A stretch of DNA of 32,000 nt. It comes from Polynucleobacter parvulilacunae. Lineage in GTDB: Bacteria; Pseudomonadota; Gammaproteobacteria; Burkholderiales; Burkholderiaceae. This document shows, piece after piece, positions 9,032 to 30,246 of this stretch. Position numbers and translations under genes: made by a program. How positions within the stretch are numbered: the first letter of the stretch is position 1; every line of letters starts with the position of its first letter. The DNA lies in the NCBI RefSeq assembly GCF_018881715.1, contig NZ_JACVPW010000001.1, positions 241,337 through 273,336 on the forward strand, in the 5' to 3' direction. The notes below the pieces were generated by a model, which worked only from the letters and a program-made list of their open reading frames with translations, made no database searches and was not told the origin of the DNA.

Positions 9032-9048
9032 TGTCGTTTTAAACGACT
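9032..9048. repeat. palindrome S3 (16/17)
   Basis: TGTCGTTTTAAACGACT, starting 6 bp after the integrase stop codon. Confidence 0.85.
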
Positions 9049-14131: not shown

Positions 14132-14803
14132 ATGTTTAATGAAGATCAAATCAAGCCAAAAACTGTAAACGACTTTATTTACAGCAACAAAGAATCACGT
14201 TTACGTATAGAAGATGTCGTAACCGGTGCACAACCTTTGCCATATGCTGGCAAGAGTGGTGTTTTACTATACGGCGTCTATGGCACAGGCAAAACCACTC
14301 TAGCCAATATCTTGCCAAACGCAATTGAAGTAGGCACCACAGGCCATGTTCAGGCACTACCTGAGTACTACATTGGATGTCGCCAAGGTTTAAATGGGGT
14401 TCAAGTATCGCAAACGATCGATAAGATTCTTGCCACACAAGCACTAAATGCTAGCGGTAAGCACTACATCATTCTTGATGAGGTTGATGTACTTACAAAG
14501 CAAGCGCAGGAAAGCCTTAAGTCATCACTTAATACCACTCGTGGTGTATTTGTTTTAACGACCAACAGCGTATCTAAGTTAGACAAGGGCTTACTTGATC
14601 GTTGCGTACTCGTTGAGATGAATGCAGCTGATCCAGAAGCCTATCTACCACTAGCTCACAAGATCACTGCGGCTCATGATGTCGTTTTAAACGACGAAGA
14701 TCTAATCCCAACCATCAAAGGGGCCAATGGATCACTACGTAATGTCATTAATAACGTGGCTCGCCAAGCTCGTCGTTCTAAATCAACCCAATCAGCCATC
14801 TAA
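14132..14803 (+). CDS. AAA+ ATPase, clamp-loader (RFC/DnaX)-like
   Basis: Walker A GVYGTGKTT, Walker B ILDEVDVL, sensor-1 VFVLTTN, an SRC-like LLDRC motif and the GSLRNVINNV helix typical of clamp-loader small subunits. Start chosen at the ATG after SD AAGGAAAAG. Confidence 0.75.
   Translation: MFNEDQIKPKTVNDFIYSNKESRLRIEDVVTGAQPLPYAGKSGVLLYGVYGTGKTTLANILPNAIEVGTTGHVQALPEYYIGCRQGLNGVQVSQTIDKILATQALNASGKHYIILDEVDVLTKQAQESLKSSLNTTRGVFVLTTNSVSKLDKGLLDRCVLVEMNAADPEAYLPLAHKITAAHDVVLNDEDLIPTIKGANGSLRNVINNVARQARRSKSTQSAI
14680..14696. repeat. palindrome S5 (16/17) inside the AAA+ CDS
   Basis: TGTCGTTTTAAACGACG, read in frame as D-V-V-L-N-D-E. Confidence 0.8.
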
Positions 14804-15509: not shown

Positions 15510-15512
15510 ATA

Positions 15513-15609
15513 TATCGTTTAAAACGACACTTCATTACACACTTACCAAACATTGCTCTAGCCTTTTGAATTTTCTACAGAAAATATTAGTGCGATCTAT
15601 TACCACTCC
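15513..15609 (+). repeat. 97-bp composite repeat R6 (includes palindrome S6, 15513..15529, A-centred)
   Basis: TATCGTTTAAAACGACACTTCATTACACAC - 38-nt variable middle - AAAATATTAGTGCGATCTATTACCACTCC. It has the same length and end blocks as R8 and R9. Confidence 0.85.
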
Positions 15610-15655
15610 GAGCAGGTTAATTCAAGATTCTGCCCAGTAACTAAAGATTCCAAGG

Positions 15656-16033
15656 CTAACGAGCTATCTTTGAAATTGCTGGCTTTGGTAAGCTACAAGC
15701 AGTCTTACCGATTAAATCTGCTCTAGAACTGCCACTTACCACCCAAGTCTGAGCCTCTTGCTCAAAATCCTTAATCTGAATTGAGCCTCCAAAGTCACCG
15801 CAAGTCGCAATAAATTGAGCCATGCTGTTCTTAATTCCATTATCAAAACCATAGACAACGCCCTGAACTACTTTTTTACCACTCCGAGATTTAATTTCAA
15901 TGGAGTCAGTTGACAGCGCAAGATCACCCACATCATCAATCATGATTAGGTCGGCCTTGACTGGAAATGAAAGTACAAATACCGCCAAAAAAATGGCTTG
16001 CTTAAACATATTAATCAAAGTCCCAAATTTCAT
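15656..16033 (-). CDS. secreted protein of unknown function, last gene of the efflux operon
   Basis: Carries a signal peptide (FLAVFVLSFPVKA). An alternative ATG at 16009 lies 1 nt after the OMF stop codon. Confidence 0.5.
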   Translation of the reverse strand: MKFGTLINMFKQAIFLAVFVLSFPVKADLIMIDDVGDLALSTDSIEIKSRSGKKVVQGVVYGFDNGIKNSMAQFIATCGDFGGSIQIKDFEQEAQTWVVSGSSRADLIGKTACSLPKPAISKIAR

Positions 16034-17240
16034 GAAGATCTAGGCGCATACGGTAGTAAGACTCCAGGGCATCCAAACGCATTAAATCAGCTGATAGCTG
16101 GTTCTCATTAGCAGCCTTTCTTGCGGCAATTAAGTCCGAAATAGTGCCTTCGCCTAGTACATAGGCCTTTTCAGCTGCCTGCGCCGCATCATTCTGGCTT
16201 TTTGCAGAACTCAACAATGTTTCTGCTGCCGCTTTTCTGCTCATCATCTGCGACCATAAGCGCTCAAACTCAACACTGATGCGTTGCTCTGTTTCGATCA
16301 CTCTTTGGCGACTAATTTCCGCTTCAGATGCTGCCGCAGAAGCATTAGAAAAACGAGCGCTACCGGATATTGGAAACGATAAACTGACGCCATTAATCCT
16401 TTCGGCACCACCAAACTCATTGGCGGTATATAGGCCAACCGTTGGATCCGGGAACCTGTCTAAGCTACTGCGTTTAGCTTGCAAATCAAATCGATCGGCA
16501 TCTGATTTGGCTAGCTTTAATTCATGACTGCGCTCTAGAAATTGTTGACGTAGTAATTCTTTCCTGGTTTGAAGATTAGGAATTGCATCCCATTTAAAGT
16601 TCTTGATTAATGCGATGCCTTGATATCTCTGCGTGACCGATTCACCGCTTGCGCTTTCTTGGGCCTTAGCTAGTTCCAAGAAGGCCTTGAGCCTACCTTG
16701 CTCCGCTGTTGCTAATTGAGCATCTAATCTAGCTACATCCCCAACCTTGTAGCGCACTTGGGCAATACGGCCAATCTGATCACCTAGTTGGCTATTTTTC
16801 TCGGCAACAATTCTTGATTGAAGCGCCTTTAGGTAAGCAAACCAGGTTGCTAATAAATCCTTGCTAGTTTCATGCATAGTATCGGCATACTCAATTCCAG
16901 CAAATGACTTGGTGGCATCAGAAATCCTCTCATCAACACCCCCTTTACCCCAAAAGCGAATTGGACGCTCAATGCCCGCCCAGTATTCTTGATAATTTGT
17001 GGCTCCCGGTATATTTGTTACCTTTCGACTTTGTCTAGAGCCCCTGACAACAAACTCTTGCGAACCCGAGGCGATGGCATCAGCCCTGTAATTTAAGGAG
17101 TCCTTTCTCGCATCCGCAGCTCCAATCTTAGGGTTGGAATACAGAGCATTTTTTACCTGGTCATCAGTTGGCAATAAATTATTAGCTAATGCTGAAGAAC
17201 AAACTCCAATAAATGCAGCAAATAGAATCAATTTTTTCAT
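16011..17240 (-). CDS. outer-membrane efflux factor (TolC/CzcC/CusC family)
   Basis: 409 aa with a signal peptide and the two-repeat coiled-coil pattern typical of OMFs. It shares a 4-bp ATGA overlap with the RND gene. Confidence 0.85.
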   Translation of the reverse strand: MKKLILFAAFIGVCSSALANNLLPTDDQVKNALYSNPKIGAADARKDSLNYRADAIASGSQEFVVRGSRQSRKVTNIPGATNYQEYWAGIERPIRFWGKGGVDERISDATKSFAGIEYADTMHETSKDLLATWFAYLKALQSRIVAEKNSQLGDQIGRIAQVRYKVGDVARLDAQLATAEQGRLKAFLELAKAQESASGESVTQRYQGIALIKNFKWDAIPNLQTRKELLRQQFLERSHELKLAKSDADRFDLQAKRSSLDRFPDPTVGLYTANEFGGAERINGVSLSFPISGSARFSNASAAASEAEISRQRVIETEQRISVEFERLWSQMMSRKAAAETLLSSAKSQNDAAQAAEKAYVLGEGTISDLIAARKAANENQLSADLMRLDALESYYRMRLDLHEIWDFD

Positions 17241-20200
17241 TTCTTGATCCTCTTAATAAGTTCAATTAAACGATCAAAGTGAATTTCTTCTTTAAGCTCA
17301 CCCCAATTATTTAATGCCCCGAACCGCTCATAGAGTTTGGGCAAAAGTAGCAAGGTTAATAAAGTTGATGTAATCAATCCACCAATCACCACAATCGCTA
17401 AGGGACGCTGAATTTCAGAACCTGGCCCCGTGGCAAAAAGAAGTGGAATCATTCCAAGGGCGGTAATAACTGCCGTCATCAGTACGGGGCGTAAACGCCT
17501 TTCAGTACCAAAGTGAATGACATCAGACATAGAGTCGCCTTTAACCAGACGCTCATTAAAGTGAGTGACCATCACCACCCCATTAAGGACGGCAATACCA
17601 AGTAATGCAATAAATCCGACCGATGCTGGCACAGAGAGGTATTGACCAGTTATGGTTAAAGCAACCACACCGCCAACCAATGCAAATGGGATATTAAGGA
17701 ATATGATCCCAGCCTGTATTGCCGAGCCAAAGGTCACCATCAGTATGGCGAAGATTAATCCCAATGCAATTGGGATCACAATAGCTAGCCTTGCAGCAGC
17801 CCTTTGTTGATTTTCAAACTGCCCTCCCCAAACCACATTGATAGTTTTAGGCAAGCTCAACGCAATCACTGCCGCCTGAGCATCCTTTACAAATCCTGCT
17901 AGATCTCTGCCATCAACTGACACTTGAATGCTAGCAAAGCGACTTGATTGCTCATGGTCAATCCGAATAGGTCCATCGATTTGCTTAATTTCAGCTAGTG
18001 ATGCTAATGGCCATGATTTGCCATCAGGCGCAGATATTAGCAAGTCGCTAAATGCTTCTGGGCTTGTACGAATGTAATCATTACCTCGAAGCACCAATGG
18101 CGTTCTGATGACACCATCTAAAACCACTCCAAGATTTTCACCCTCAATTTGATTACGTAATCGCTGCTGCAAGTCTTCAATCGAGAATCCAGCCTGCCCA
18201 GCCACGGTACGGTTAATCTTTAGGCTTAAGTACTGCATTCCTTCAGCACGAGGTGCAATTACCTCAGCCGCACCCTTAACATTCCGAACTGAGCCAGCTA
18301 TAGCTTGTGCAGCCTTATTAATTTCAACCAAATCACCGCCGAAAATTTTGATTGCCACATCACCGCGGGTTCCCGTAAGCATCTCGGAGACACGCATTTC
18401 AATGGGTTGGGTGAATCCATATACTAATCCAGGGAAATTCTCTAAGGTAGTCCTTAGCTTATTGGCAATATCGTCCTTGTTGCCAGACCATTCACTTTTA
18501 GGCTTGAGCACTAAAAACATATCCGTTTCATTTAAGCCCATAGGATCTAAACCCAAATCATCTGAACCTGCTCTGGCAACAATGGATTTGATCTCAGGAA
18601 CTTCTTTTAAAAATAACTGCTCCACCTGAGAATCAATGATGAGTGATTCATTTAAGGATATTGATGGGAGCTTTTGCAGCTGAACCAAGATGTCTCCTTC
18701 ATCTAGAGTAGGCATAAAGGTTTTTCCCACAATCATATAAAGAATTACCATCACACCCAACCCAATGCCAGAAGCCCTGTAAAGCCACTTGGTATTGCCC
18801 CAAACCTGATTGCGCCACTCAACATATTTCTCTGAAATCTTGCGCATGAACTTTGTCTCTTCATCTGCTTTACGCTCTAAAACAAATGAGGCTAAAGCGG
18901 GAATGACAGTAAATGCAATTAATAAGGATGAGGCGAGCGCCATAACAATTGTTAGCGCTACAGGTGAAAAGAGCTTGCCCTCCAAACCTTCAAGACTGAG
19001 CAATGGAAGAAAAACTACAGCAATAATCAATACACCAGCTACGACCGGCTTAACAACCTCATGAGTAGCAATGGAAATGATTTCCGTCTTACTTAATGCT
19101 TTTGATGTATTGGGATCAGCAAAGGCTGTTTCTACATTTTCAACCACCACCACCGCAGCATCAACCAACATACCAATAGCAATGGCTAATCCGCCCAAGC
19201 TCATCAAGTTGGCCGTTAGGCCGAATGCCTTCATTAAGATGAATGTAGAAAGTATTGAGAGCGGAAGGACAGCGGCAACCACCAGAGCGGCACGATACCC
19301 CCCTAAAAATAGATACAAAGTGATGCATACCAAAACGGTAGCTTCAAGCAAAGCCTTTGTTACAGTACCTGCTGCACGGGACACTAATTCACCACGGTTA
19401 TAGAAAGTATTTACGGTCATGCCTTTTGGCAACCTTGGTGCAATCTCAACTAGTTTTTGCTCAACCGAATCAACTAGAAGGCGAGCATTAGCGCCGCGCA
19501 AACCTAAGACCAAACCTTCTACTGCCTCTCCTTTTCCATCTTTAGTAACGGCGCCATAGCGAGTGGCCGACCCTAGGTGGACTGTAGCCACCTCATCGAG
19601 CATGACTGAGCCACCATTTGCTTTAGGGATCTGGATCTTTTTGACATCGTCCAGTTTTTTAACCGCTCCCTCAACACGAACTACTAACGTCTCCTCGCCT
19701 TGATCAATACGCCCAGCACCATCATTACTATTGTTAGTCATTACCGCTTTACGAAGATCTACCATCGTAATTCCACGAGCAGCCAATCGGGATGGATCCG
19801 GTATCACCTCATAAGTCAAAATCTCTCCGCCCAAGACATTGACTTCAGCCACACCAGGAATGGTTCGGAGCTCAGGCCGAATGATCCAGTCCAACACGGT
19901 GCGTTTATCTCTTAAGCTAAAGCCCTCACCCTCAAGAGTGAACATATAAATTTCACTTAAAGGGGTGGTAATTGGCGCCAGCCCACCAGTAGCGCCAGGC
20001 GGAAGGTCTTTTGTAAATGCATTCAAACGTTCCGAGATTTGCTGACGAGCCCAATAAATATCAGTACCATCGTCAAAATCAATCGTGATATCAGCAATGC
20101 CGTATTTAGATACCGATCTTACAATCCGCTTCTTAGGAATACTAAGCATTTCAATTTCAATCGGACGAACTACCCTCTGCTCAACCTCTTCAGGCGTCAT

Positions 20201-20365
20201 TCCCGGAATTTTCAGAATAATTTTGACTTGGGTTGGCGAGATATCCGGGAAGGCATCAATTGGCAGCGTCATCCATGCATGGATACCAAAAAGCACTAAT
20301 GCAATAGCCATTGCCAATACGAGCTTGCGAAAATGCAAACTCGCATCAATTAATTTAGTAAACAT
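17237..20365 (-). CDS. heavy-metal-efflux (HME) RND permease, CusA/CzcA family
   Basis: 1042 aa with an N-terminus (LPIDAFPDISPTQV ... YGIADITIDFDDGTDIYWARQQISERL) typical of CzcA/CusA. The TM4 motif GMLVDAAVVVVEN is closer to the CusA type. Confidence 0.95.
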   Translation of the reverse strand: MFTKLIDASLHFRKLVLAMAIALVLFGIHAWMTLPIDAFPDISPTQVKIILKIPGMTPEEVEQRVVRPIEIEMLSIPKKRIVRSVSKYGIADITIDFDDGTDIYWARQQISERLNAFTKDLPPGATGGLAPITTPLSEIYMFTLEGEGFSLRDKRTVLDWIIRPELRTIPGVAEVNVLGGEILTYEVIPDPSRLAARGITMVDLRKAVMTNNSNDGAGRIDQGEETLVVRVEGAVKKLDDVKKIQIPKANGGSVMLDEVATVHLGSATRYGAVTKDGKGEAVEGLVLGLRGANARLLVDSVEQKLVEIAPRLPKGMTVNTFYNRGELVSRAAGTVTKALLEATVLVCITLYLFLGGYRAALVVAAVLPLSILSTFILMKAFGLTANLMSLGGLAIAIGMLVDAAVVVVENVETAFADPNTSKALSKTEIISIATHEVVKPVVAGVLIIAVVFLPLLSLEGLEGKLFSPVALTIVMALASSLLIAFTVIPALASFVLERKADEETKFMRKISEKYVEWRNQVWGNTKWLYRASGIGLGVMVILYMIVGKTFMPTLDEGDILVQLQKLPSISLNESLIIDSQVEQLFLKEVPEIKSIVARAGSDDLGLDPMGLNETDMFLVLKPKSEWSGNKDDIANKLRTTLENFPGLVYGFTQPIEMRVSEMLTGTRGDVAIKIFGGDLVEINKAAQAIAGSVRNVKGAAEVIAPRAEGMQYLSLKINRTVAGQAGFSIEDLQQRLRNQIEGENLGVVLDGVIRTPLVLRGNDYIRTSPEAFSDLLISAPDGKSWPLASLAEIKQIDGPIRIDHEQSSRFASIQVSVDGRDLAGFVKDAQAAVIALSLPKTINVVWGGQFENQQRAAARLAIVIPIALGLIFAILMVTFGSAIQAGIIFLNIPFALVGGVVALTITGQYLSVPASVGFIALLGIAVLNGVVMVTHFNERLVKGDSMSDVIHFGTERRLRPVLMTAVITALGMIPLLFATGPGSEIQRPLAIVVIGGLITSTLLTLLLLPKLYERFGALNNWGELKEEIHFDRLIELIKRIKK

Positions 20366-21471
20366 TACTCGTCCTTCTGCGCAAGGGCTTTCAGAGAGGC
20401 AATACCCGTTACGGCGACTTTGACTCCATTTGAAAGTGGAGCTTGAATTGAGGCTAAGTCGTCGTCGCTTGAGATAACTGATACAGGCTGAAGAACAACG
20501 CCAGTACTAGATAGAATAAAAATAGCACTTTGACCTTTCCAACTAGTGATTGCTCTAGAAGGAACTTGCCATAAGGTTTTATCCTGCACTTTAGGCTTCA
20601 TCTTGGTCTGGATAGTTGCAGTAACAACCTCACCCATTTGCAATGTTCCGCGGTCCTCAACAACCGCCCTAACTCTAGCGGATTGAGATGCACTCACCGC
20701 CTGAGATACCCCAGTAACTTTTGCCTTTGCATTACGCGAAGCAATTACGATCTCGTCACCAGGCTGAATACCCATAGCTTTAAAGCCAGATGTATTAATT
20801 TCTAAATTGAGAGTTGAGATGTCGGCAATTCTAAATAGCAAGGTTCCAGTATCAACACGTTGACCGATTAAATTGTGAGCCTCTATTACAGTACCTGGGA
20901 TAGGAGACTTCAGAGCGCCGGTAGCATAAGAGTTAAAGGCCTCTTTGTTCTTAGGATCATCAAAGTTAATGCCTGCTGCCTTCAATTCAGATTGCCTTGC
21001 CATCAACATTGCATTAGCGTTCTCTGACTTTGCCTTAGTTATATTAAGACGAGACTGAGGAATAATGCCCTCTTTAAATAGCTCGTTGTCACGTACCAAA
21101 GCCTCTTTAGCCAAACGTGCATCAGATGTCGCCTCTAACAACATCCTTCTAGAATCACCCATCTGAGGACTTGTGAAATAAGCCAGTGGTGATCCCAACT
21201 TCACGATATCACCAATGCCCACAACCATTTGACTTAGTTGTCCAGGATAAGGGGCGGACAGGATTGCCTGCTTTTCGGGAGGCACTGTAACGGATGCGCT
21301 AACCAATACAGATCCAGCATCAACCGAAATTGCTGAGTAGAAATTAACGCCCATGGCAGCCTGTTGGCTAGCAGTTAGTTTTAATGCCTTGGGGGTAAAT
21401 TCTTGAGCAGAGAGATTTCCGCTCAATACAAGTGAACAAAGGAAAAGGGTAACAATACGAAATCGAAACAT
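20365..21471 (-). CDS. RND membrane-fusion (periplasmic adaptor) protein
   Basis: 368 aa with a signal peptide and lipoyl/hairpin/beta-barrel patterning. It overlaps the RND start by 1 nt. Confidence 0.85.
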   Translation of the reverse strand: MFRFRIVTLFLCSLVLSGNLSAQEFTPKALKLTASQQAAMGVNFYSAISVDAGSVLVSASVTVPPEKQAILSAPYPGQLSQMVVGIGDIVKLGSPLAYFTSPQMGDSRRMLLEATSDARLAKEALVRDNELFKEGIIPQSRLNITKAKSENANAMLMARQSELKAAGINFDDPKNKEAFNSYATGALKSPIPGTVIEAHNLIGQRVDTGTLLFRIADISTLNLEINTSGFKAMGIQPGDEIVIASRNAKAKVTGVSQAVSASQSARVRAVVEDRGTLQMGEVVTATIQTKMKPKVQDKTLWQVPSRAITSWKGQSAIFILSSTGVVLQPVSVISSDDDLASIQAPLSNGVKVAVTGIASLKALAQKDE

Positions 21472-21534
21472 AACAACCTCTAGAAACAGTACTAACTAAA
21501 TCCAAGAAACGTGAGCAAGTCACGCCAGAGAAAT

Positions 21535-21945
21535 TTAGAGGTCTAGAGGCGGAGCCAAAGAAAGGGGTGGTGAACTTTGGGCGTGCCTTTGAAAAGCGAA
21601 TCTATCAACGCTACAAAAATAGTAAATTTGTTTTAGACAACTGACTGCATAAACCAAGGCAAACAGGGTTAAAGCATAAAAACTTAGGATGAGGAGATCA
21701 AATTTTTCACTTTGACGAGAAGCGGGAACGCCTACCTCAGGAGATTCTTCCGTGGTACTCGTGAAAAAAACTTTGGCAGACTCAGATGCGGCGGAAGATT
21801 CAAAACCAGTACTGGCTACATGAAGGTGAAGACCGAACTGACTTGAGGCACCAGTATGAGCATGTAGAAATGGTGTCAATACCTGCAAAACTACTGCCAG
21901 CAGAAATATGACAACAAGAAGAGGCTTAGACCGCAATAAAGACAT
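21535..21945 (-). CDS. small membrane protein with a His-rich segment, first gene of the efflux operon
   Basis: N-terminal TM helix followed by FLHAHTGASSQFGLHLHV, then a second TM helix. Function unknown. Confidence 0.45.
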   Translation of the reverse strand: MSLLRSKPLLVVIFLLAVVLQVLTPFLHAHTGASSQFGLHLHVASTGFESSAASESAKVFFTSTTEESPEVGVPASRQSEKFDLLILSFYALTLFALVYAVSCLKQIYYFCSVDRFAFQRHAQSSPPLSLAPPLDL

Positions 21946-22143
21946 ACTTTAATTCTACACCCCTAACATTTCACTTTAAAGACCAATCAACAAATAAAAG
22001 CGGTCCTTAATTTTATAGATAAATCAATAATGAGAACCATTCGTAAAAAGATATTAGGCTCATCATTATTTTTTACCCCATGCAAGAATAGACACTTCGG
22101 ATTGAATGGAAACAACACTTAATTTATACGAGGAAAAATAATT

Positions 22144-22380
22144 ATGATGACTTCCTTTGCACTTCTTCTATTTTCGCTTGCTATCTTAGCGCTGGTTTCA
22201 TTGTTTGGTGGGTGCAGATCCAGAAGGCGTTACCTTATTGATTCTTATGGATTAGATATCATCAAACTTAAAGCATTAAGCTGCTTAGAGCTAAAAGAGC
22301 TTCACGACAAAGTTCATGCTCTTCAAAAACATGAAGATGCAATTGCGATTAGTACATTATTAAAATTTTATAGGGCATAA
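22144..22380 (+). CDS. hypothetical small membrane protein (78 aa)
   Basis: ORF with an N-terminal TM helix and an upstream GAGGAAAAATAATT. This is weak support. Confidence 0.3.
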   Translation: MMTSFALLLFSLAILALVSLFGGCRSRRRYLIDSYGLDIIKLKALSCLELKELHDKVHALQKHEDAIAISTLLKFYRA

Positions 22381-22406
22381 CTTTAATTAAAAAAGTAAAC
22401 GAACAA

Positions 22407-23588
22407 TCAATTCCTAAATGTCCTACCCTTGTACACCCAAGTAGCCATCAATAGGAAAGCCACCAAGGCGCAGCTACCTGAAAATAAGAATGCATATAAC
22501 GGAGAAATAGATTCGTATACCCAACCAAAGATAAATGAAGCTGGAAATAACATTAATCCAGTAATTAAATTGAACCAACCAAAGGCTGTGCCAGCCAACC
22601 CTTTAGGAGCCATGTCTGCCACCAAGGCTTTCTCAACACCTTCAGTAGCTGCTTTAAATAATCCATAGATTCCAAAGAGCGCAAATATTTGATAGACAGA
22701 TATACCAGGCAAACCCATCGCGATATAGAAAAAAGCAAAAGCAATCCAAGCAATCAAAATAAACCGCTTACGGCCAAAGGTGTCTGATAGTGCCGACAAG
22801 GGGGTACCGAACAAGGTCGTAATTAAGGAGATTGCCGCCCATAAGAGTGGAATTTGTTCTTGTGGAACTCCCGCTTCTCTTGCCCTTAATAACAAAAACA
22901 TGTCGGATGAATTAGCCAAAGCAAAAATGCCCGCCACCACAAGATATCTTTTAAATTGATCTGGCATACCTTCAAGCGACCAGCTAAATTTACTTGCTTG
23001 TGGGGCCGCCTCTCGCTTTGGCTCTTTGATACACAAAGCAAGGGTAATAGTGATTACAGCTGGAACAATGGCCCATAGAAAGATATCTTTGAGGGGTACA
23101 CCCATAGATAAAAACATAGCGGCCAGCAGTGGGCCGATGACTGCTCCGGCGTTATCCATTGACCTATGTAGGCCATAGGTAACACCTCGTTGATTCTCAT
23201 TTACGCTCTCAGCCAAAAGAGCGTCACGGGGAGAGCTTCGAAGACCTTTACCCATGCGATCAGTAAAGCGAATTGCTAACACCCATAGCCATGAATTCGC
23301 AATAGCAATAAGCGGTCGCCCAATGCCCGCTAATGTGTAGCCCAACACAATCCAAGGCTTGGCTTTCTTAGTGCGATCAACAATGACGCCCGAAACTAAT
23401 TTGAAAATACTTGAAGTAGCTTCAGCAATGCCCTCAATAATGCCTAGTGCTTTGGGTCCGGCCATCAAGACTGAGGCTAGATATAAAGGCATTAATGGAT
23501 ACAGCATTTCGCTGGCCGAATCATTTACCAGGCTAATGAGACCAATGAGCCAAACGGTGCGAGGAAGAGCAAGAATTGTTTTAAACAT
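22407..23588 (-). CDS. MFS transporter
   Basis: 393 aa with about 12 hydrophobic segments and the MFS loop motif DRMGKGLRSSPRDA. Confidence 0.85.
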   Translation of the reverse strand: MFKTILALPRTVWLIGLISLVNDSASEMLYPLMPLYLASVLMAGPKALGIIEGIAEATSSIFKLVSGVIVDRTKKAKPWIVLGYTLAGIGRPLIAIANSWLWVLAIRFTDRMGKGLRSSPRDALLAESVNENQRGVTYGLHRSMDNAGAVIGPLLAAMFLSMGVPLKDIFLWAIVPAVITITLALCIKEPKREAAPQASKFSWSLEGMPDQFKRYLVVAGIFALANSSDMFLLLRAREAGVPQEQIPLLWAAISLITTLFGTPLSALSDTFGRKRFILIAWIAFAFFYIAMGLPGISVYQIFALFGIYGLFKAATEGVEKALVADMAPKGLAGTAFGWFNLITGLMLFPASFIFGWVYESISPLYAFLFSGSCALVAFLLMATWVYKGRTFRN

Positions 23589-23612
23589 TACAAGCTCAAT
23601 TTACTCTTGTTT

Positions 23613-23629
23613 TGTCGTTTTAAACGACA
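23613..23629. repeat. palindrome S7 (17/17)
   Basis: Exact copy between the MarR-like stop (23694) and the MFS start (23588), ending 24 bp upstream of the MFS ATG. Confidence 0.9.
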
Positions 23630-23693
23630 TGGACTGCGTAGGGACGGAGAATTGATTTTGCCCTTTTAAAGAGCAACTCTTGATGAGTTCCGC

Positions 23694-24047
23694 CTAACTC
23701 CCTTTTATTGCTTTTTCCAAGCAAACCGATAATTGCTCGTAATATTTGAATGCTTTTGCTGTGGGAGCTACGCACTTCTTTCGGCCATCGGTTTTATCTT
23801 CAGTTAACTTCACATAACCCATCGCAACGAGATTCTTTAGGCGACCATGGAGTGTAGCTTGAGAGCCAAATTGGCTCAGCTGAATTAAGTCACCTACTAA
23901 AAGCTCTTTATCCCGCGAAGCTGATAAAGAGATGTGATTTAAGAGTTGCTCTTCGGTAGAATCCAGTTTCTTACCTGGGTTCATGCAATCTAGAGCATTC
24001 AAGCAATTCAAAAAACGAATATAAGGAGATGATTTGATAGATTTCAT
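23694..24047 (-). CDS. winged-helix transcriptional regulator, MarR-like
   Basis: 117 aa. The segment LLVGDLIQLSQFGSQATLHGRLKNLVAMGYVKLTEDKTDGRKK fits an HTH plus wing. Confidence 0.6.
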   Translation of the reverse strand: MKSIKSSPYIRFLNCLNALDCMNPGKKLDSTEEQLLNHISLSASRDKELLVGDLIQLSQFGSQATLHGRLKNLVAMGYVKLTEDKTDGRKKCVAPTAKAFKYYEQLSVCLEKAIKGS

Positions 24048-24174
24048 CTATAGATTTTAATCGCACGAGTATTGCTTTTGCATTTCTAAGATGGCTCAGG
24101 CCAGAATCGACCCGCCACAGGCACTTTCAATTCCCGCCTCTGCCAACAGTAATTTGCCGATAGCCGCCATACGA

Positions 24175-24271
24175 TGTCGTTCAAAACGACACTTCATTAC
24201 ACGCTCATTTAAATCATTTGCAACCGCTTAAATTACTTGCTGAAATTATTAGTGCGATCTATTACTACTCC
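24175..24271 (+). repeat. 97-bp composite repeat R8 (includes palindrome S8, 24175..24191, A-centred, 16/17)
   Basis: TGTCGTTCAAAACGACACTTCATTACACGC - 38-nt variable middle - AAATTATTAGTGCGATCTATTACTACTCC. Confidence 0.85.
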
Positions 24272-24320
24272 TAGGCTCTATTTAACGGCCGCTTAAGACC
24301 CAAAGAGCGGCCATAACAAG

Positions 24321-24341
24321 AAAAACCGCCCGAAGGCGGTT
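24321..24341 (-). terminator. rho-independent terminator
   Basis: The minus strand reads ACCGCC-TTCG-GGCGGT followed by TTTTT, 20 bp after the stop codon of the Met-rich membrane protein gene. Confidence 0.75.
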
Positions 24342-24361
24342 TAGATTCGACGCAAATTTGA

Positions 24362-25066
24362 TTAATGGTTATGCCCTGAATTACCCATAGGCATATTTTG
24401 TTGCATCTGCTGGGGCATTTGTCCGCTGCCCATTGGCATATTCCCACCATTCATAGGCATTTGCTTTTGCATCTGCTTAATTTGTGCAGGAGTCATGTTG
24501 CCCATCATCTGTTGGTGCATTTGCATCATTTGTGAATGCATTGAAGGATCGCATTGCTCATACCTTGAATTGCCACTCATTTGATGGGTATCAGCACCTT
24601 TATAGCCAAGTAATGATGGGTCCAGCATTCCTGAAATCATAGCGATATGCCCAAATACTAGGAATAAGGCAACGCAGATTGCATGAATCTTTAACTTACC
24701 TATTTGGTCTAGCTTTTGATTCACAAAACCAAACTCTTGCAAGGCAATCCAAATTAATGGCAAGCCACCAATGAGGTAACTGCCAACGGCAACTACATCA
24801 ATTACCGTTCTCCATTCACCACCCTTAGTAATAGGAACAACTGCGGTAGTCATCAAATAGGCAATGATGCCAATAAAGTACAGTCCAACCGTTGTGCCTG
24901 AAAAGCGGTTGAGGTGATACACAAAGCCATCAAACTTACGAGTAAAGAGGATATACAGCTCAGTGATTGCCAATGTCTCAGCAAGTACTATCGGTATAGC
25001 CATAAAGATGAGCAGATTCCAGGGCTGGTTGTCTGCCAATAACTGCATATAGTGAGTCATATTCAT
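24362..25066 (-). CDS. polytopic membrane protein with a Met/Gln/His-rich C-terminal tail (putative Cu(I)-handling)
   Basis: Start moved to MNMTHY (ATG at 25064..25066, preceded by GGAGATTTAGTA). The ORF-track start at 25114 is a TTG. The roughly 60-aa tail reads MHSQMMQMHQQMMGNM...MPMGSGQMPQQMQQNMPMGNSGHNH. Confidence 0.65.
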   Translation of the reverse strand: MNMTHYMQLLADNQPWNLLIFMAIPIVLAETLAITELYILFTRKFDGFVYHLNRFSGTTVGLYFIGIIAYLMTTAVVPITKGGEWRTVIDVVAVGSYLIGGLPLIWIALQEFGFVNQKLDQIGKLKIHAICVALFLVFGHIAMISGMLDPSLLGYKGADTHQMSGNSRYEQCDPSMHSQMMQMHQQMMGNMTPAQIKQMQKQMPMNGGNMPMGSGQMPQQMQQNMPMGNSGHNH

Positions 25067-25124
25067 TACTAAATCTCCAAAACATAAATTATCAAAACGA
25101 CAAAAGTCGTCCAATCAGAAGTGA

Positions 25125-25460
25125 TTACAGATATTGTTTTGGTGGCTTGTAGATCGATTCAGTAATATTGGAAATAGACTTGGGTGTTTCACCAAGCAAA
25201 TAGACGTCAGATGATTCGTTAAGTGCAAAAGTAACTGGGTTATTTAAAACCGCAATAGATGAACAGCAATAGTGGCTAACACTTAACTTGCTAACTGGCT
25301 GAGATTCATCATGAGATGCAGAAGCAACAGCCTCCTCGCAGTGACTATGAGAAGCAGTCTGCATGGCATGGGAAGATTCTCCTGATGCAATAGGCATTGT
25401 GCTGGCATTAACCATGCCAACTATGAAACTCAGAAAGAGCATTACTGCAATCTTCTTCAT
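25125..25460 (-). CDS. secreted His/Cys-rich protein
   Basis: Signal peptide MKKIAVMLFLSFIVGMVNA, then ESSHAMQTASHSHCEE...SHYCCSS. Confidence 0.5.
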   Translation of the reverse strand: MKKIAVMLFLSFIVGMVNASTMPIASGESSHAMQTASHSHCEEAVASASHDESQPVSKLSVSHYCCSSIAVLNNPVTFALNESSDVYLLGETPKSISNITESIYKPPKQYL

Positions 25461-25500
25461 ATACCTATTTTAAGCCCTTATAGCCAATTAAGCTTGGGGA

Positions 25501-25764
25501 TCAGCCACAGCAGCAGCCACCACTGTTTTTCTGGGCGGGAGCAGCAGATTGTTCATCCAAGTCTAAGCTAGATGGGTAGCCCTCTTCATCCAAGGCATGG
25601 ATAAGGTCACCAGATTGATCTGTCGTTCTACCAACTTGCACACGACCAGACTGTAAATCCACATGAACACTTTCAACACCATCCAACACTTCAAGAGCTT
25701 TGGTTACATGCTTTACACATGAACCACAAGTCATACCCTGCACACTTAAATTGATTTGAGGCAT
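25501..25764 (-). CDS. heavy-metal-associated (HMA) domain protein, CopZ/MerP-like, with a C-terminal Cys cluster
   Basis: GMTCGSCVKHV metal-binding loop within a ferredoxin-like fold pattern. The tail ends in GGCCCG. Confidence 0.85.
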   Translation of the reverse strand: MPQINLSVQGMTCGSCVKHVTKALEVLDGVESVHVDLQSGRVQVGRTTDQSGDLIHALDEEGYPSSLDLDEQSAAPAQKNSGGCCCG

Positions 25765-25800
25765 AGCACTCTCCCTTACTTTATCTATACCTATATATGG

Positions 25801-25923
25801 TTACTTTTTTGTAAAAAACAAGTACTTACATAGGGCTGCTATCGAAAGAATGAGGGCAATTAAGACCAAAACCCCGACCAATCCCATTCCACCCATCATT
25901 GAGCCATCCATGAATTGATTCAT
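25801..25923 (-). CDS. possible 40-aa Met-rich single-TM peptide, not in the ORF track
   Basis: MNQFMDGSMMGGMGLVGVLVLIALILSIAALCKYLFFTKK, preceded by a strong SD (GGAGG, 5-nt spacer). Confidence 0.4.
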   Translation of the reverse strand: MNQFMDGSMMGGMGLVGVLVLIALILSIAALCKYLFFTKK

Positions 25924-26018
25924 ATCAACCTCCATTAGGCTAAGTGCCTAGTTTCATCCTATGCCTATCTAGGCAGCATGTCTAGGTTTCATTTAAGTGA
26001 GTTTGCGAAAATCAGGGG

Positions 26019-26264
26019 TTATGCGAAACCTGAAGTTCTTATCAGAAGATTGGCTAAACGATCAACCACTTCACACCAGTCAGAATCCTCTGCTTTTGCC
26101 TCAATCAAAAAAGTCCTTTGGTCAGGAGCCCAAAAAATTGCATCTTCTAAGATTGAACCTGGCTTCATTTGATGTTTTTCAATGAACCGCCCCATATGAA
26201 TCTTTTGAGAGGACAGTCCAAGTTGCTCAAACAATTCTTCAAGGGTTCTAGTGTTGGCATTCAT
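26019..26264 (-). CDS. small cytoplasmic protein (DUF2789-like)
   Basis: 81 aa. The pattern LFEQLGL...FIEKH....L.DA.FW...Q..FL.EA...DS.W.EVVD.L is as I remember this family. Confidence 0.5.
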   Translation of the reverse strand: MNANTRTLEELFEQLGLSSQKIHMGRFIEKHQMKPGSILEDAIFWAPDQRTFLIEAKAEDSDWCEVVDRLANLLIRTSGFA

Positions 26265-26285
26265 GAAAGCCTCCTTTTTGAGCTT

Positions 26286-26900
26286 TTATTCCATCCTACA
26301 AAAGCAATATAAGAATTGTTGGGTAGTGCCCATTGGTGTTTTATGGGTTTCAGTTGAACTATTAATGAGCTTAAAAGTCTTGCCAAACTGTCCATGGAGA
26401 TTCTCTGAGTCATAGCGAACGACATCCAACCCACTACATTTCTCAGGGCCATCTGGACCAAAAGTGGACATAATCACATAACCACCATGCTTAACAGAGC
26501 GCATCACTTGCTCTACATATCTGGCTCGCTGAGCTTCTTCCGTTAAAAAGTGAAATACAGCTCTGTCGTGCCAAACATCAAAATAATTCTGAGGAAGCGT
26601 TGCCTGAGTAATATCAGCACAATACCAATGTACTTCTTCTGCTGACTTTCCCAGCCTTTCTCTAGCGACATCAATTGCTTTCTGAGAAATATCTAAAACA
26701 CTGATGTCTTGGTAACCCTCAAATAAAAGGTCGTCAACTAAAGTAGCTTCGCCGCCACCGATGTCAATAATCGCGGCATCTTTATTGGCTGTTGCTTTAT
26801 GAATGAGATTTAAGGAAGTTTCAAGATGGGGCGTATACCAACTGACAGCATCTGGTGCCTTAGTGCCGTAGACTTTTTCCCAGTGTTCTTTGTTATCCAT
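26286..26900 (-). CDS. class I SAM-dependent methyltransferase
   Basis: Motif I IIDIGGGEATL followed by the acidic loop VLDIS, in a 204-aa Rossmann-type protein. Confidence 0.8.
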   Translation of the reverse strand: MDNKEHWEKVYGTKAPDAVSWYTPHLETSLNLIHKATANKDAAIIDIGGGEATLVDDLLFEGYQDISVLDISQKAIDVARERLGKSAEEVHWYCADITQATLPQNYFDVWHDRAVFHFLTEEAQRARYVEQVMRSVKHGGYVIMSTFGPDGPEKCSGLDVVRYDSENLHGQFGKTFKLINSSTETHKTPMGTTQQFLYCFCRME

Positions 26901-26951
26901 AATTACCTTTCACATAATTATTTGATTCATTCTATGCTCATTAGAGCAGTT

Positions 26952-27048
26952 TGTCGTTTTAAACGACACTTCATTGCACACCCACTTTAATCATTCTTAA
27001 GCACTTGAATTGACTAAAGAAATTATTAGTGCGATCTATTACCGCTCC
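26952..27048 (+). repeat. 97-bp composite repeat R9 (includes palindrome S9, 26952..26968, 17/17)
   Basis: TGTCGTTTTAAACGACACTTCATTGCACAC - 38-nt variable middle - AAATTATTAGTGCGATCTATTACCGCTCC. Confidence 0.85.
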
Positions 27049-29949: not shown

Positions 29950-29966
29950 TGTCGTTTTAAACGACA
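29950..29966. repeat. palindrome S10 (17/17)
   Basis: Exact copy 233 bp inside the right island border. The following roughly 78 nt end in CCGCTCC at 30044, so this may be a degenerate 95-bp relative of the 97-bp element. Confidence 0.9.
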
Positions 29967-30198
29967 CCTTTGAATGCCCGTTAATGGCAGGCTGATCTGC
30001 ACAGCTAGAAAATCATCCGTTCCCCGACCACTACCCTCCGCTCCAAGCCATATGCTAGAACGCTTTTGTCCAGCAAAACCTTATTCTTTAGTACTTTGCG
30101 GGTGGTGTGTCACACGGTGTGTGCTACGGTGAAAACCTTGGGTTTGTAAGTCGTTGAATTTATTGACTTTTAGGGTCGGACAACCTGGACGCTGTGCT

Positions 30199-30244
30199 TT
30201 ATGATTCCGTCGCTCTAACCAGCTGAGCTAATTCGCCGAACTCG
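30199..30244. repeat. island direct repeat, right copy (attR core): orphan tRNA 5' half
   Basis: Identical to 3829..3874. The adjacent 30171..30198 is only weakly similar to the tRNA 3' half and cannot form anticodon or T stems. Confidence 0.9.
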
Positions 30245-30246
30245 CT

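Follow-up and report, generated by a model that had tools for sequence, protein, structure and literature searches.

In integrons, one attC site occupies each joint of an array of exchangeable blocks. All sites share one orientation, have conserved ends and a block-specific variable centre, and are usually found directly behind a gene's 3' end. Beside a conserved platform lies a terminal site of a different kind, and the cargo is accessory. The attC sites vary in length (57-141 bp) and have the core consensus GTTRRRY at the cassette boundary. Their ends (R''/R', L''/L') are imperfectly inverted and pair in a folded single strand, and an IntI-type integrase, which has an extra domain, is encoded with the array.

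The lambda attL site combines a core, an IHF bend and the arm sites P'1-3, and lambda has one attL and one attR. A lambda-type core has inverted binding sites to either side of an overlap of 6-8 bp, in which strand exchange occurs. On Acinetobacter plasmids, XerC/XerD sites flank discrete gene modules, called pdif modules, which carry for example resistance or toxin-antitoxin genes. The pdif sites are 28 bp long, dif-like, alternate in orientation and use the host Xer proteins.

In the island PAISt of Streptomyces turgidiscabies, a tyrosine recombinase acts on internal and flanking palindromic repeats, which leads to modular excision (PMC4057263). The core is an 8-bp palindrome without a long extension, present in three copies that delimit large modules, and the island itself is an actinobacterial conjugative element that integrates at bacA (PMC4057263). 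Tycheposons and other additive tRNA-linked islands are seeded at tRNA genes (tRNA-Met is a known target), carry a tyrosine recombinase and have a full tRNA at one end and a partial one at the other; their cargo accumulates as one integration follows another, and their host is abundant, planktonic and streamlined (bioRxiv 10.1101/2020.12.28.424599; PMC10872708).

Here we analyse a repeat of 97 bp in a stretch of 32,000 nucleotides from Polynucleobacter parvulilacunae (the window). Sequence comparison bears the repeat out and places it where swappable gene blocks meet in a mobile island within a tRNA-Met gene. Polynucleobacter is among the most abundant freshwater bacterial genera. Its strains differ chiefly by genomic islands that are able to cross species boundaries (PMC5644125).

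The island and its recombinases

The island is about 26 kb long and inserted in the 5' half of the Polynucleobacter tRNA-Met gene. Its cargo is accessory and comprises metal efflux, oxidative stress and candidate defence genes. The island ends and the recombinase genes are the following (compared sequences are given below by L numbers):

3791..3867, minus strand: intact tRNA-Met gene, in which the 5' half (3822-3867), extended by flanking sequence up to 3882, forms the left-hand att repeat
3883..3987, no strand: tRNA-proximal island arm; it contains three direct repeats of ACGGT(G/A) as well as a TACACAC box
7755..9026, plus strand: tyrosine integrase, 423 aa, three domains, lambda-Int-like
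11790..12356, plus strand: small tyrosine recombinase, 188 aa, catalytic domain only
29950..30044, plus strand: terminal-type site (S10), consisting of the palindrome, 62 nt and CACTACCCTCCGCTCC
30045..30191, no strand: conserved island-end arm with ACGGTG direct repeats, adjoining the tRNA fragment
30192..30252, minus strand: right-hand att repeat, 61 bp, a copy of the tRNA-Met 5' half plus 15 nt upstream

The right-hand att repeat (30192-30252) is 92% identical to 3822-3882 in a repeat search, and an empty site that aligns with the att repeats is seen in L036. Both arms are conserved: the tRNA-proximal arm is 91-96% identical in L025 and L018, the island-end arm 76-91% identical in L005, L006 and L007.

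The integrase matches Pfam models weakly and NCBIfam models not at all (E ≤ 0.01), and it matches the integrase family phrog_1 with E = 1e-30. Its AlphaFold model (pLDDT 84) has an N-terminal domain of beta-sheet plus helix: four strands and a helix at residues 35-94, before the core-binding and catalytic domains. A separate N-terminal domain of this kind is what a lambda-type integrase has. The top Foldseek matches of the model are XerH, Tn1549 Int and full-length lambda Int, and the alignment with full-length lambda Int extends over 401-423 columns. With this predicted lambda Int architecture, the integrase could use arm sites. The small recombinase matches Pfam Phage_integrase (7.7e-25), and its Xer-like and invertase-like NCBIfam matches are far under the cut-offs.

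A palindrome at the joints

The palindrome is a perfect dyad of 17 bp, in which the inverted half-sites TGTCG and CGACA surround the A/T-rich centre TTTWAAA. With up to two mismatches, its sequence GTCGTTTWAAACGAC occurs at 10 sites in the window (0.01 expected). All of these lie in the 26-kb island, none in the 5.5 kb of core flanks that the window also contains. Seven of the 10 lack the 80-bp extension that makes up the rest of the 97-bp repeat; among the eight intergenic palindromes of the window just three have it. Apart from the repeat copies and the terminal site, the palindromes are:

3988..4004, no strand: bare palindrome of 17 bp closing the tRNA-proximal att arm on its distal side
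7679..7695, no strand: bare palindrome that precedes the integrase gene by 60 nt
9032..9048, no strand: bare palindrome 6 nt past the integrase stop codon, kept in L018 (11279) and L008 (4481)
11942..11958, no strand: palindrome within the small recombinase gene, read in frame as D-V-L-N-D
14680..14696, no strand: palindrome within a clamp-loader-like AAA gene, with a counterpart at 9943 in L008
23613..23629, no strand: bare palindrome, with the MarR stop codon on one side and the MFS start codon on the other

Strains lose homology to one another at bare palindromes. Homology to P. necessarius L025 and to L018 stops at the outer edge of the palindrome 3988..4004. Homology with L008, L018 and L037 begins at the palindrome 7679..7695 (break at 7680), and the L018 counterpart keeps the right half-site alone, with the break at the palindrome centre.

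The palindrome directly precedes the integrase gene and in most relatives directly follows it as well. It is also present inside the partner small recombinase gene, even in L019-L024, where the integrase is 65% identical and the palindrome brackets a methylase/helicase block. At 11942..11958 an identical stretch of 16 nt is found in L008, L018 and L020, in genes that are otherwise 71-86% identical.

In the relatives, palindrome counts cover the loci around recA. The palindrome is absent from 21 kb of P. arcticus and 20 kb of JS-Polo-80-F4 (core), and absent outside the tRNA-Met locus in L025, L026 and L037. We reject a REP/BIME or a DNA uptake sequence as explanation of the palindrome, since there is no genome-wide over-representation in the recA-region loci and the 10 sites are confined to the island.

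Structure of the 97-bp unit

Three copies of the unit lie in the window:

15513..15609, plus strand: junction repeat copy R6, 97 bp, where the integrase/AAA backbone module gives way to the czc-MFS block
24175..24271, plus strand: junction repeat copy R8, 97 bp, with the MarR gene on one side and a DUF6803-HMA-DUF2789-methyltransferase block on the other
26952..27048, plus strand: junction repeat copy R9, 97 bp, separating the methyltransferase block from the DUF2971 / HipA-like block

The copies are ungapped, 97 nt each, and 73-78% identical to the reference in a repeat search of the window. Each consists of a left block of 30 bp that opens with the palindrome TGTCGTTTWAAACGACA, a variable middle of 38 bp and a near-invariant right block of 29 bp. 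Pairwise identity among R6, R8 and R9 is 26-27 of 30 positions in the left block (1-30), 17-23 of 38 in the middle (31-68) and 27 of 29 in the right block (69-97). The repeat search and the block identities hence confirm the original prediction of three copies in the same orientation with conserved ends and a variable middle. The predicted distance of 31-90 bp to a stop codon also holds: the nearest minus-strand ORFs (15656.., 24362.. and 27080..) leave gaps of 46, 90 and 31 nt to R6, R8 and R9. Because the sequences flanking the three copies are mutually unrelated, the copies are not parts of a longer duplication; the recent duplication that had been considered alongside the repeat is thus not what we see.

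The right block is composed of TTATTAG-TGCGAT-CTATTAC plus CYRMTCC. Its TATTAG and TATTAC are spaced 13 bp, and its centre lies about 72 bp (seven helical turns) from the palindrome centre. The ACGGT(G/A) repeats of the island's tRNA-side arm differ from TATTAG/TATTAC. A CACAC box lies 15 bp from the palindrome dyad. The longer TACACAC occurs three times in the window, always at most 30 bp from a palindrome centre and once within the 97-bp repeat.

A folded RNA or DNA and a protein scaffold had both been offered as reasons for the constant length. Of the two, the protein scaffold fits best, as two conserved blocks are held at a fixed distance over a spacer of constant length and variable sequence. 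The fold option fares badly: the sole shared helix is the palindrome hairpin, no predicted pair on either strand shows a compensatory change, and most z-scores are unremarkable. The folds pair the palindrome with itself, in agreement with the earlier remark that neither end is an inverted repeat of the other. Except for the tRNA, the window has no Rfam 15 match at the gathering threshold, and around the three copies there is none at E ≤ 1. The copies share no ORF, no -35/-10 pair, no promoter and no terminator.

Two site types are rejected for the unit as a whole or in part. For a MITE or another non-autonomous transposon, one end (TGTCG..) bears no relation to the other (..CTCC), and at each copy the flanking pentamers are different. 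For a Xer/dif module site, the right block agrees by eye with 11 of the 22 arm positions of E. coli dif and is without the XerD arm TTATGTTAAAT.

S10 had been proposed as a degenerate fourth copy. A profile HMM of the eight copies matches only its palindrome (E = 0.14), so we assign it to a class of its own, made of the palindrome, 8-62 nt and CACTACCCTCCGCTCC. This terminal class shares with the 97-bp repeat only the palindrome and a TACC..CGCTCC-like end. It closes the array in the window, in L006 and in L007, where L006 and L007 have short versions (8 nt instead of 62); diverged versions exist in L005 and L026.

Copies outside the window

A search of related genomes, as had been suggested, yielded five further distinct copies in a MAG and in metagenome contigs, four of 97 bp and one of 96 bp:

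L001, L005, L006 (identical to L008 14728-14823), L007 and L008 10964-11060: distinct copies outside the window

The search pattern was the right block alone, and the palindrome and left block were found at equal distance in every outside copy. Over the eight distinct copies, the unit is thus 97 bp long in seven and 96 bp in one. Since the scans required the right-block core, its invariance in the five outside copies is in part a product of the selection; the 17-mer TTAGTGCGATCTATTAC is exact in all four copies that were not selected by it (R6, R8, R9 and L008 10964-11060). The unit is rare: scans of the whole collection for the exact core returned one genome contig and four metagenome contigs. 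The integrase-bearing relatives L018-L024 and L037 have no 97-bp unit, and their palindromes are bare or degenerate. Hence, the unit is not essential to the system.

All copies with a visible wider context lie in the same locus, between tRNA-Met and the conserved island-end arm, and L008 10964-11060 is the positional counterpart of R6, beyond the homologous backbone. These copies lie at block joints of this locus rather than scattered at random, the other outcome that had been considered. Orientation is constant in seven distinct copies (eight occurrences, one common to L006 and L008), with the tRNA-Met gene, the terminal site or the integrase backbone as landmark; the L001 contig is too short for a landmark and is placed solely through its 92% homology to L006. 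The original prediction also put the unit downstream of the last minus-strand gene of a block. This stands as a tendency, as a minus-strand ORF ends 6-90 nt ahead of the right block in seven of eight copies. It is not a rule, as blocks hold several genes and those of one L008 block (OsmC, katG) face the opposite way.

Divergence among copies is concentrated in the middle and not evenly spread. Between different unit types, 14-24 of the 38 middle positions are identical. L001 and L006 have orthologous right flanks and differing middles: identity is 92% in the adjacent gene and 84% at the 4-fold sites of that gene, and the middle agrees at only 24 of 38 positions (63%), near the value for unrelated pairs. 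R9 and the L005 copy, in turn, are 93% identical with 36 of 38 middle positions shared, in unrelated DNA on either side; homology breaks at both unit ends. From the fixed spacing and the variable middle it follows that spacer length is held and spacer sequence is free. In the copies compared, the middle diverges faster than neighbouring synonymous sites.

A putative recombination joint

We give an even chance to the following reading: the 97-bp unit is a DNA-level recombination joint of a cassette-accreting island, with a fixed spacer between its palindromic core and its accessory block, and is used by the lambda-Int-like integrase. Integrase action at the sites, the position of the crossover, the binder of the right block and the bending are all points that we infer. 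The palindrome would be the core site, with strand exchange in TTTWAAA between the half-sites TGTCG and CGACA. Its perfect dyad would suit a lambda-type core, as would the breakpoints at palindromes. In the 38-bp spacer, only the length and a few A/T positions would matter. The right block would complete a one-sided accessory arm, bound by the N-terminal domain of the integrase and/or by a partner protein, and the spacer would be bent between core and arm. The resulting complex may set directionality and partner choice during insertion, excision and swapping of blocks. Exchange would take place with a further copy of the unit, with a bare palindrome or with the terminal site.

The evidence is comparative throughout, and among the sequences compared we saw no circle, no empty joint and no hybrid site whose parent can be traced. 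If the integrase binds the ACGGTR arm sites, then something else must bind the right block. Furthermore, a model with one arm predicts that the 80-bp arm travels with the right-hand block, which two pairs of copies contradict: R9 and L005 have the unit in common and not the right-hand block, L001 and L006 the right-hand block and not the middle. To reconcile these pairs with the model, one has to postulate either a further exchange point in or close to the right block or frequent replacement through homologous exchange. The two blocks could also owe part of their conservation to gene conversion among copies instead of a binding constraint.

On the best reading, the unit works like an attC or attL site, yet it is a member of neither family. 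Of the earlier comparison with attC, the layout survives: the units are joint sites of exchangeable blocks, one per array joint and in a single orientation (the window, L005, L006, L007 and L008), although some array joints carry a bare palindrome only. As in integrons, the unit has conserved ends and a block-specific variable centre, usually lies just past the 3' end of a gene, and is accompanied by a distinct terminal site that adjoins a conserved platform and by accessory cargo. Membership in the attC family does not survive. An IntI-type integrase is absent, as already stated in the original prediction; the island has a tyrosine recombinase of another kind, and the 188-aa protein reaches 38.7 bits with the integrase_gron model, at a cut-off of 265. 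The ends are unpaired and have no R''/R' or L''/L' boxes; left and right block pair only through 5-6 invariant bp on the minus strand. There is no GTTRRRY core, since the boundary reads GTTTWAAAC and the T at the fourth position violates R. In contrast to attC, the length is fixed, blocks contain several genes facing either way, many joints are the 17-bp palindrome only, and the whole array lies within a tRNA-integrated island.

Like lambda attL, the unit has a dyad core and a one-sided accessory region, which reaches to about +88 from the core centre, and the predicted integrase structure has a lambda-like N-terminal domain. A partly conserved A/T-rich patch lies mid-way and is loosely similar to WATCAANNNNTTR, the IHF consensus. 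Unlike in lambda, the right-block repeats (TATTAG/TATTAC) are not those of the island's own tRNA-side arms (ACGGTR), there are many copies per island, and the arm is not consistently linked to adjacent DNA.

PAISt resembles the locus as a tyrosine-recombinase island in which internal and flanking copies of a palindromic core allow modular excision, and differs in core, copy number, module size, target and type of element, as described above (PMC4057263). The island as a whole has the full tRNA, the partial tRNA and the tyrosine recombinase of a tycheposon. Seeding at a tRNA gene, stacked cargo and an abundant, streamlined planktonic host are further common features. However, internal joints are partial tRNA copies in tycheposons and a non-tRNA palindrome plus the 97-bp unit here, and the duplicated tRNA segment here is the 5' half. 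With pdif, the locus shares short recombinase sites that bracket small exchangeable modules; the missing XerD arm separates the two.

A wider reading, which we offer as a tentative possibility from the sequence, is an undescribed cassette capture system that is analogous to integrons, independent of them and run by an arm-binding, lambda-Int-like tyrosine integrase. Its sites would be the palindromes and the 97-bp unit; the unit would play the attC-like part on the cassette side, with the fixed spacer building the synaptic complex. The module of small recombinase and clamp-loader-like ATPase would possibly assist the integrase. Multi-gene blocks would be stacked and shuffled at 17-bp palindromic joints within the tRNA-Met islands of Polynucleobacter and related freshwater Betaproteobacteria.

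Alternative explanations

Alternatively, the unit could be a small mobile non-coding element or a site-specific passenger, either an 80-bp insertion beside palindromes or a 97-bp mini-cassette, with no recombination role of its own. Such an element could have moved into the unrelated surroundings of R9 and L005 with even its fast-evolving middle intact. It would likewise agree with the differing middles beside the orthologous right flanks of L001 and L006, and with an extension on only three of eight intergenic palindromes. However, the unit has neither terminal inverted repeats nor a target-site duplication, and no transposase-like gene was identified in the protein annotation of the window. 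Its divergence is mostly confined to the middle, unlike that of decaying copies, and its orientation and locus are strictly constant. We consider a mobile element unlikely.

Palindromes lie just upstream of the starts of the integrase, MFS, methyltransferase and MarR genes, and in front of the methyltransferase gene a single weak promoter-like match takes its -35 from the palindrome end. This would suit a cis-regulatory module, in which the palindrome is the operator of an island repressor or silencer, the right block binds a second factor and both together insulate or co-regulate neighbouring blocks, with breakpoints being secondary. A looped regulatory complex would also account for the fixed spacing of the two blocks. 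This explanation is quite improbable: R6, L006/L008 and L001 lie between convergent genes and have no downstream target, a common -35/-10 pair is lacking, two palindromes lie inside coding regions, and repeated homology breakpoints, including the one that leaves a half-site, are unexpected for an operator.

The unit could also be a passive homology anchor, whose blocks are kept alike by gene conversion and which serves RecA-dependent exchange after DNA uptake without a dedicated binder. Blocks of 29-30 bp are short for this, being at or under the usual minimum length for efficient RecA exchange. The strict spacer length, the perfect dyad, its conservation in and beside recombinase genes at 65% protein identity and the break at the palindrome centre would be left unexplained. 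Crossovers in both conserved blocks would, on the other hand, produce a middle that is unlinked from both flanks, and shuffling of cassettes by transformation is documented for chromosomal integrons (PMC12614218). All in all, we think that the chance of a mere anchor is small.

Least probable, and very unlikely, is a transcribed RNA element (a 3'-UTR or small RNA of the preceding minus-strand genes): minus-strand ORFs do end shortly before the right block in most copies (6-90 nt, seven of eight), the invariant 17-mer might act as a seed or as an RNA motif that a protein binds, and a CGCAC/GUGUG helix of 5-6 bp is possible on the minus strand only, but compensatory changes, an Rfam match and a common ORF are absent, the consensus energy is just -6 to -8 kcal/mol, RNA z-scores are -1.3 to +0.4 for six of eight copies, and an intrinsic terminator between gene and unit in R8 and L008a and nowhere else makes the architecture inconsistent.

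Implications

To our knowledge, how small gene blocks enter and leave genomic islands such as those of Polynucleobacter is mostly unexplained outside integrons. Should the sites be inactive relics, the 97-bp unit still serves as a useful marker for block limits in these islands. Its fixed-spacer design provides an experimental handle, as half and whole helical turns can be compared. If the sites are active, they would provide a concrete mechanism with a defined core, an accessory arm and a candidate enzyme, and would be a second, independently evolved answer to the cassette-array problem. Active sites would then explain how a streamlined planktonic bacterium shuffles its genes for metal resistance, oxidative stress and phage defence.

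Results

The 97-bp unit is real, non-random and conserved. A repeat search of the window confirms three 97-nt copies, which are ungapped, direct and 73–78% identical to the reference. Repeat search and sequence reading place these copies, and pairwise comparison among them characterizes the parts of the unit.

Copies of the unit in the window, and identity of its parts between pairs of R6, R8 and R9
Copy R6: 15513–15609
Copy R8: 24175–24271
Copy R9: 26952–27048
Left block, unit positions 1–30: 26–27 of 30 positions identical
Middle, unit positions 31–68: 17–23 of 38 positions identical
Right block, unit positions 69–97: 27 of 29 positions identical

The stop codon of the nearest minus-strand ORF lies 46, 90 and 31 nt from R6, R8 and R9, respectively. 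Because the flanks of the three copies are unrelated to each other, the unit is not a fragment of a longer duplication, an origin that the original prediction had already disfavored. The palindrome, a 17-bp dyad at the start of the left block, is not confined to the 97-bp repeat: seven further sites in the window have it, giving ten in total where 0.01 are expected, and all ten occurrences (at most one mismatch) are in the island described below. Nor is S10 (29950–30044) the suspected degenerate fourth copy, since the unit profile matches its palindrome only. S10 is the long form of the array-terminal site, which differs from the unit and consists of the palindrome, 8–62 nt and CACTACCCTCCGCTCC.

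Across 185,579 species-representative genomes, the right-block 19-mer core has one true match, on a MAG contig (L001); three further matches are due to chance and fall in pdxB-like coding sequence (our own reading) or in unrelated DNA. A metagenome scan with the right-block pattern returns four contigs (L005–L008), and L008 carries a second copy. The palindrome and the left block stand at a constant distance in every match, though they were absent from the search pattern. This brings the distinct copies to eight; all have 97 bp except one, which has 96 bp. Wherever the context is visible, all copies occupy a single locus in a single orientation, with the palindrome toward the tRNA-Met gene and the right block toward a conserved island-end arm (about 30045–30191 in the window) that adjoins a tRNA fragment. 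The L001 contig is too short for a landmark and is placed solely via its 92% homology to L006.

The unit has no match in about 300 kb of related loci around recA and integrase homologues, where the right-block 17-mer is either exact or missing, even with four mismatches allowed. In IMG/VR the right block has no match and the palindrome only seven single matches, which is chance level. On plasmids the unit is unmatched and relatives of the integrase are remote only. We reject a phage or plasmid origin, since neither search matched the unit. Exact look-ups of the RecA, DUF2878 and 144-aa proteins of the window and of protein P0004 gave no matches. The unit is apparently rare and lineage-restricted, within reach of exact-core scans.

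The copies lie in an island at tRNA-Met. RecA from the window has 98% identity with the Polynucleobacter necessarius protein and 96% with the P. arcticus protein. On its left edge the window has sucC, recX, recA, a DUF2878 gene and tRNA-Met (3791–3867), and on its right edge genes for a 144-aa, a DUF6150 and a MOSC protein. Three of these, the 144-aa gene, tRNA-Met and the DUF2878 gene, stand next to one another in Polynucleobacter sp. JS-Polo-80-F4. Alignment with this empty site reveals an insertion of about 26 kb, roughly 3883–30191, bordered by a 61-bp direct repeat (3822–3882 and 30192–30252) that comprises the 5′ half of tRNA-Met and 15 nt upstream.

Recombination and clamp-loader-like genes inside the island
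7755–9026: tyrosine integrase, 423 aa
11790–12356: recombinase, 188 aa, catalytic domain only
Also inside the island: clamp-loader-like AAA protein

The cargo includes NERD and Schlafen-type helicase genes (the latter PADLOC candidate PDC-S41), czcCBA-like efflux, MFS and MarR genes, HMA, DUF6803, DUF2789 and methyltransferase genes, a DUF2971 gene (PDC-S31) and a HipA-like gene. The unit sits at the joints of this cassette array, so the predicted placement was right. The array mixes defence candidates with metal-efflux genes. PDC-S41 is matched at E = 5.9e-280 (Schlafen-group helicase, 5655–7640) and PDC-S31 at E = 6.6e-27 (DUF2971, 27080–28018), and NERD and HipA-like genes are close by.

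The island occupies the 5′ half of tRNA-Met, a stretch that runs from the anticodon loop past the 5′ end into some 9–15 nt of upstream sequence (empty site L036, 10435–10643), whereas usually the 3′ half is used. The intact gene therefore retains the chromosomal 3′ half. The displaced tRNA-Met copy retains the original upstream region, now directed into the array. Both island-end arms contain ACGGT(G/A) direct repeats spaced 11–13 bp apart, three near tRNA-Met (3935–3972) and two near the tRNA fragment (30110–30135); they are candidate arm-type sites of the integrase that placed the island.

Polynucleobacter sp. P1-05-14 (L018, 6917–8534) has a second related integrase of 433 aa on the 3′ side of the same tRNA-Met, together with a DUF6641 gene and a small recombinase gene of its own, arranged as a mirror image; this tRNA-Met is therefore occupied on both sides. 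In a further Polynucleobacter population (L026, 10436–11300; also L027–L035) a single HAD-hydrolase gene separates tRNA-Met from the 144-aa gene. A terminal-type site, TGTCGTTTAAAACGCCA plus ATTGCACCACTCGCCGCC, bounds this gene, neither an integrase nor a tRNA fragment is present, and the arrangement has the look of a one-gene relic of this system.

Homology between islands breaks at the palindromes. L008, L018 and a further related locus, L037, are alignable with the window from exactly the palindrome at 7680, and to its left each of them has different genes. For L018 and L025 (P. necessarius) the match with the window starts at tRNA-Met, spans the arm and stops at the outer edge of the 3988–4004 palindrome, beyond which they diverge. 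The pre-integrase site of L018 keeps the right half only, TTCTAAACGAAA, so that the break falls at the dyad centre; at the L037 sites the right half is conserved and the left half degenerate.

The unit itself is unlinked from both of its neighbours, because R9 and the L005 copy share the unit but neither flank, and L001 and L006 share the right-hand gene but not the middle. R9 and the L005 copy are 93% identical (36 of 38 positions in the middle), with unrelated DNA and proteins on both sides. The right-hand genes of L001 and L006 are 94% identical in protein, 92% in DNA and 84% at 4-fold sites; the middles of their units agree at 24 of 38 positions, near the 14–23 of unrelated copies. Exchange would occur at or within both conserved blocks.

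The palindrome accompanies the recombinases. In the window and L018 one palindrome precedes the integrase gene by 60 nt and another follows its stop codon by 6 nt. In L019–L024 it precedes a 65%-identical integrase, and a second palindrome brackets a methylase/helicase block. It also lies within the 188-aa recombinase gene of the window, L008, L018 and L020, where the same 16 nt are kept in genes otherwise 71–86% identical. We found no palindrome in the core flanks of the window, in 21 kb around P. arcticus recA or in 20 kb of JS-Polo-80-F4, and in L025 and L026 it is confined to the tRNA-Met locus. Two palindromes within genes share a reading frame, which first raised the suspicion of a genome-wide uptake sequence or REP; we reject it, since the core loci of relatives that we examined are devoid of the palindrome. 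An origin from the tRNA D-arm region is likewise rejected: the best match, 10 of 17, is not significant, and 7% of random 105-nt windows reach at least 11 of 17.

Palindromes conserved at the level of nucleotides occur within the coding sequence of the 188-aa recombinase and clamp-loader-like AAA genes (window 11942–11958 and 14680–14696; L008 7185 and 9943; L018 13840; L020 9518). Both coding palindromes of the window are translated as (D/V)-V-L-N-D, and that of the recombinase gene keeps every synonymous position across the 71–86% identical homologues. These genes belong to a conserved four-gene module of the 188-aa recombinase, a 260–299-aa protein, a 257–267-aa protein and an AAA ATPase (window 11790–14803; L020 6554–9686; L023). 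The two mid-size proteins have no match in Pfam, NCBIfam, PHROG, PADLOC or PDB profiles. Relative to the large integrase gene, the module is oriented in L020 and L023 opposite to the window, L008 and L018, which suggests an invertible or separately mobile segment. In L018 two single-gene blocks (8655–8690, 9285–9320) are each preceded by the palindrome and a G-rich 16-mer, GGTGAGTGGGTAGGGG and GGCGAATGGATGGGGG, which could represent a further short extension class of joint.

The middle of the unit has diverged near saturation, faster than adjacent synonymous sites. Yet the eight copies differ by a single indel of 1 bp, and this pattern points to two putative recognition blocks with an obligatory fixed distance. 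The dyad centre of the palindrome lies at unit position 9, and that of an imperfect dyad, TTATTAG-TGCGAT-CTATTAC, at position 81.5. By arithmetic the centres are about 72 bp apart, near seven helical turns. Invariant in the middle are A38, A48, T55, A57, T59 and T60, which on the minus strand form a loose, putative match to the IHF consensus. The TACACAC motif of the left block is present three times in the window, each time within 30 bp of a palindrome centre. In the AlphaFold model (pLDDT 84) the integrase has an N-terminal domain of four strands plus a helix; the model aligns over its whole length with lambda Int, with matches also to XerH and Tn1549 Int. The modelled architecture is of the kind that bridges core and arm sites.

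Discussion

We propose that the unit is a recombination joint, in which a palindrome core and a one-sided accessory arm govern block exchange; we hold this detailed scheme at even balance. The 80-bp extension would be the accessory arm beside the palindromic core, on the scale of lambda attL. The arm would assemble a bent complex that controls insertion, excision or swapping of gene blocks. Comparison shows the anatomy, the fixed length, the placement at block joints, the island and integrase specificity and the breakpoints at sites; the acting enzyme, the crossover position, the binder of the right block and the bending are its putative steps. Three observations speak against it. The tRNA-side arms have ACGGT(G/A) repeats, whereas the right block has TATTAG/TATTAC; the unit is linked to neither adjacent block; and relatives with the integrase do without the unit.

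Alternatively, the unit could be a passenger mini-element. This is unlikely; a MITE in particular is rejected, as terminal inverted repeats and target duplication are both absent. That it is a regulatory module we consider slightly less probable. A sigma-70 promoter is rejected because the scan found no site common to the copies: the semi-conserved TTGAAT at 54–59 has no −10 element at 16–18 bp, and the minus-strand TGTAAT no −35 element. A terminator role is rejected too, as none is common to the copies: one lies between the upstream gene and the unit in R8 and in one of the L008 copies (L008a), none elsewhere. Immediately left of R6, between convergent genes, a hairpin with a 13-bp stem (15477–15510, TAGAAATACTCCA...TGGAGTATTTCTA) is likely a bidirectional terminator. 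A passive homology anchor is an improbable reading of the unit.

Least probable of all is an RNA element. The predicted option that a fold constrains the unit found no support: neither RNAalifold, run on both strands, nor single folds of the eight copies gave compensatory pairs. A structured RNA or ssDNA, or an attC-like hairpin, is rejected, since no helix is shared beyond the palindrome hairpin and 5–6 invariant pairs. RNA z-scores are −1.3 to +0.4 in six of the eight copies, and the middle hairpins vary in position and strength. Hairpins seen by eye at 44–49/63–68 were dropped because their registers differ between copies, and a known RNA family is rejected with no Rfam match. A coding role is rejected, as no ORF is common to the copies: R6, R8 and R9 have a short minus-strand frame opened by ATGAAGTGTCGT..., L007 has lost the ATG and end points differ among copies. 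The right block bears some likeness to the MOBQ motif TAAGTGCG|CCCT and to Rep-protein nonanucleotides (..TATTAC). We detected neither a relaxase nor a HUH protein, and reading the block as an oriT or HUH nick site is an unsupported lead.

How does the recombination joint compare with known systems? Like attC, the unit has conserved ends around a variable centre and stands at cassette-array joints in a single orientation. It differs from attC in integrase, end pairing and core sequence. That it marks an undescribed, integron-analogous cassette system is possible but doubtful. With integrase architecture as the point of comparison, its layout is nearest to a lambda-type core-plus-arm site. As in tRNA-seeded additive islands and tycheposons, the island as a whole has one full and one partial tRNA, encodes a tyrosine recombinase and stacks its cargo; tRNA-Met is among the known targets (bioRxiv 10.1101/2020.12.28.424599; PMC10872708). 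In contrast to these, tRNA fragments do not form the internal joints here, and the duplication covers the 5′ half of the tRNA. Excision of modules by a tyrosine recombinase acting on palindromic repeats inside an island has an experimental precedent in PAISt (PMC4057263). The two sequences have no match in the papers searched.

Most likely, the unit is a site-specific recombination joint in an accreting island. On the plus strand the central base of the palindrome is A in seven of the eight units and T in most bare palindromes, which have no 80-bp extension; at the homologous pre-integrase palindrome the window has T and L008 has A. Should the palindrome centre lie in the overlap region, the relative orientation of the sites would be set by this single position.
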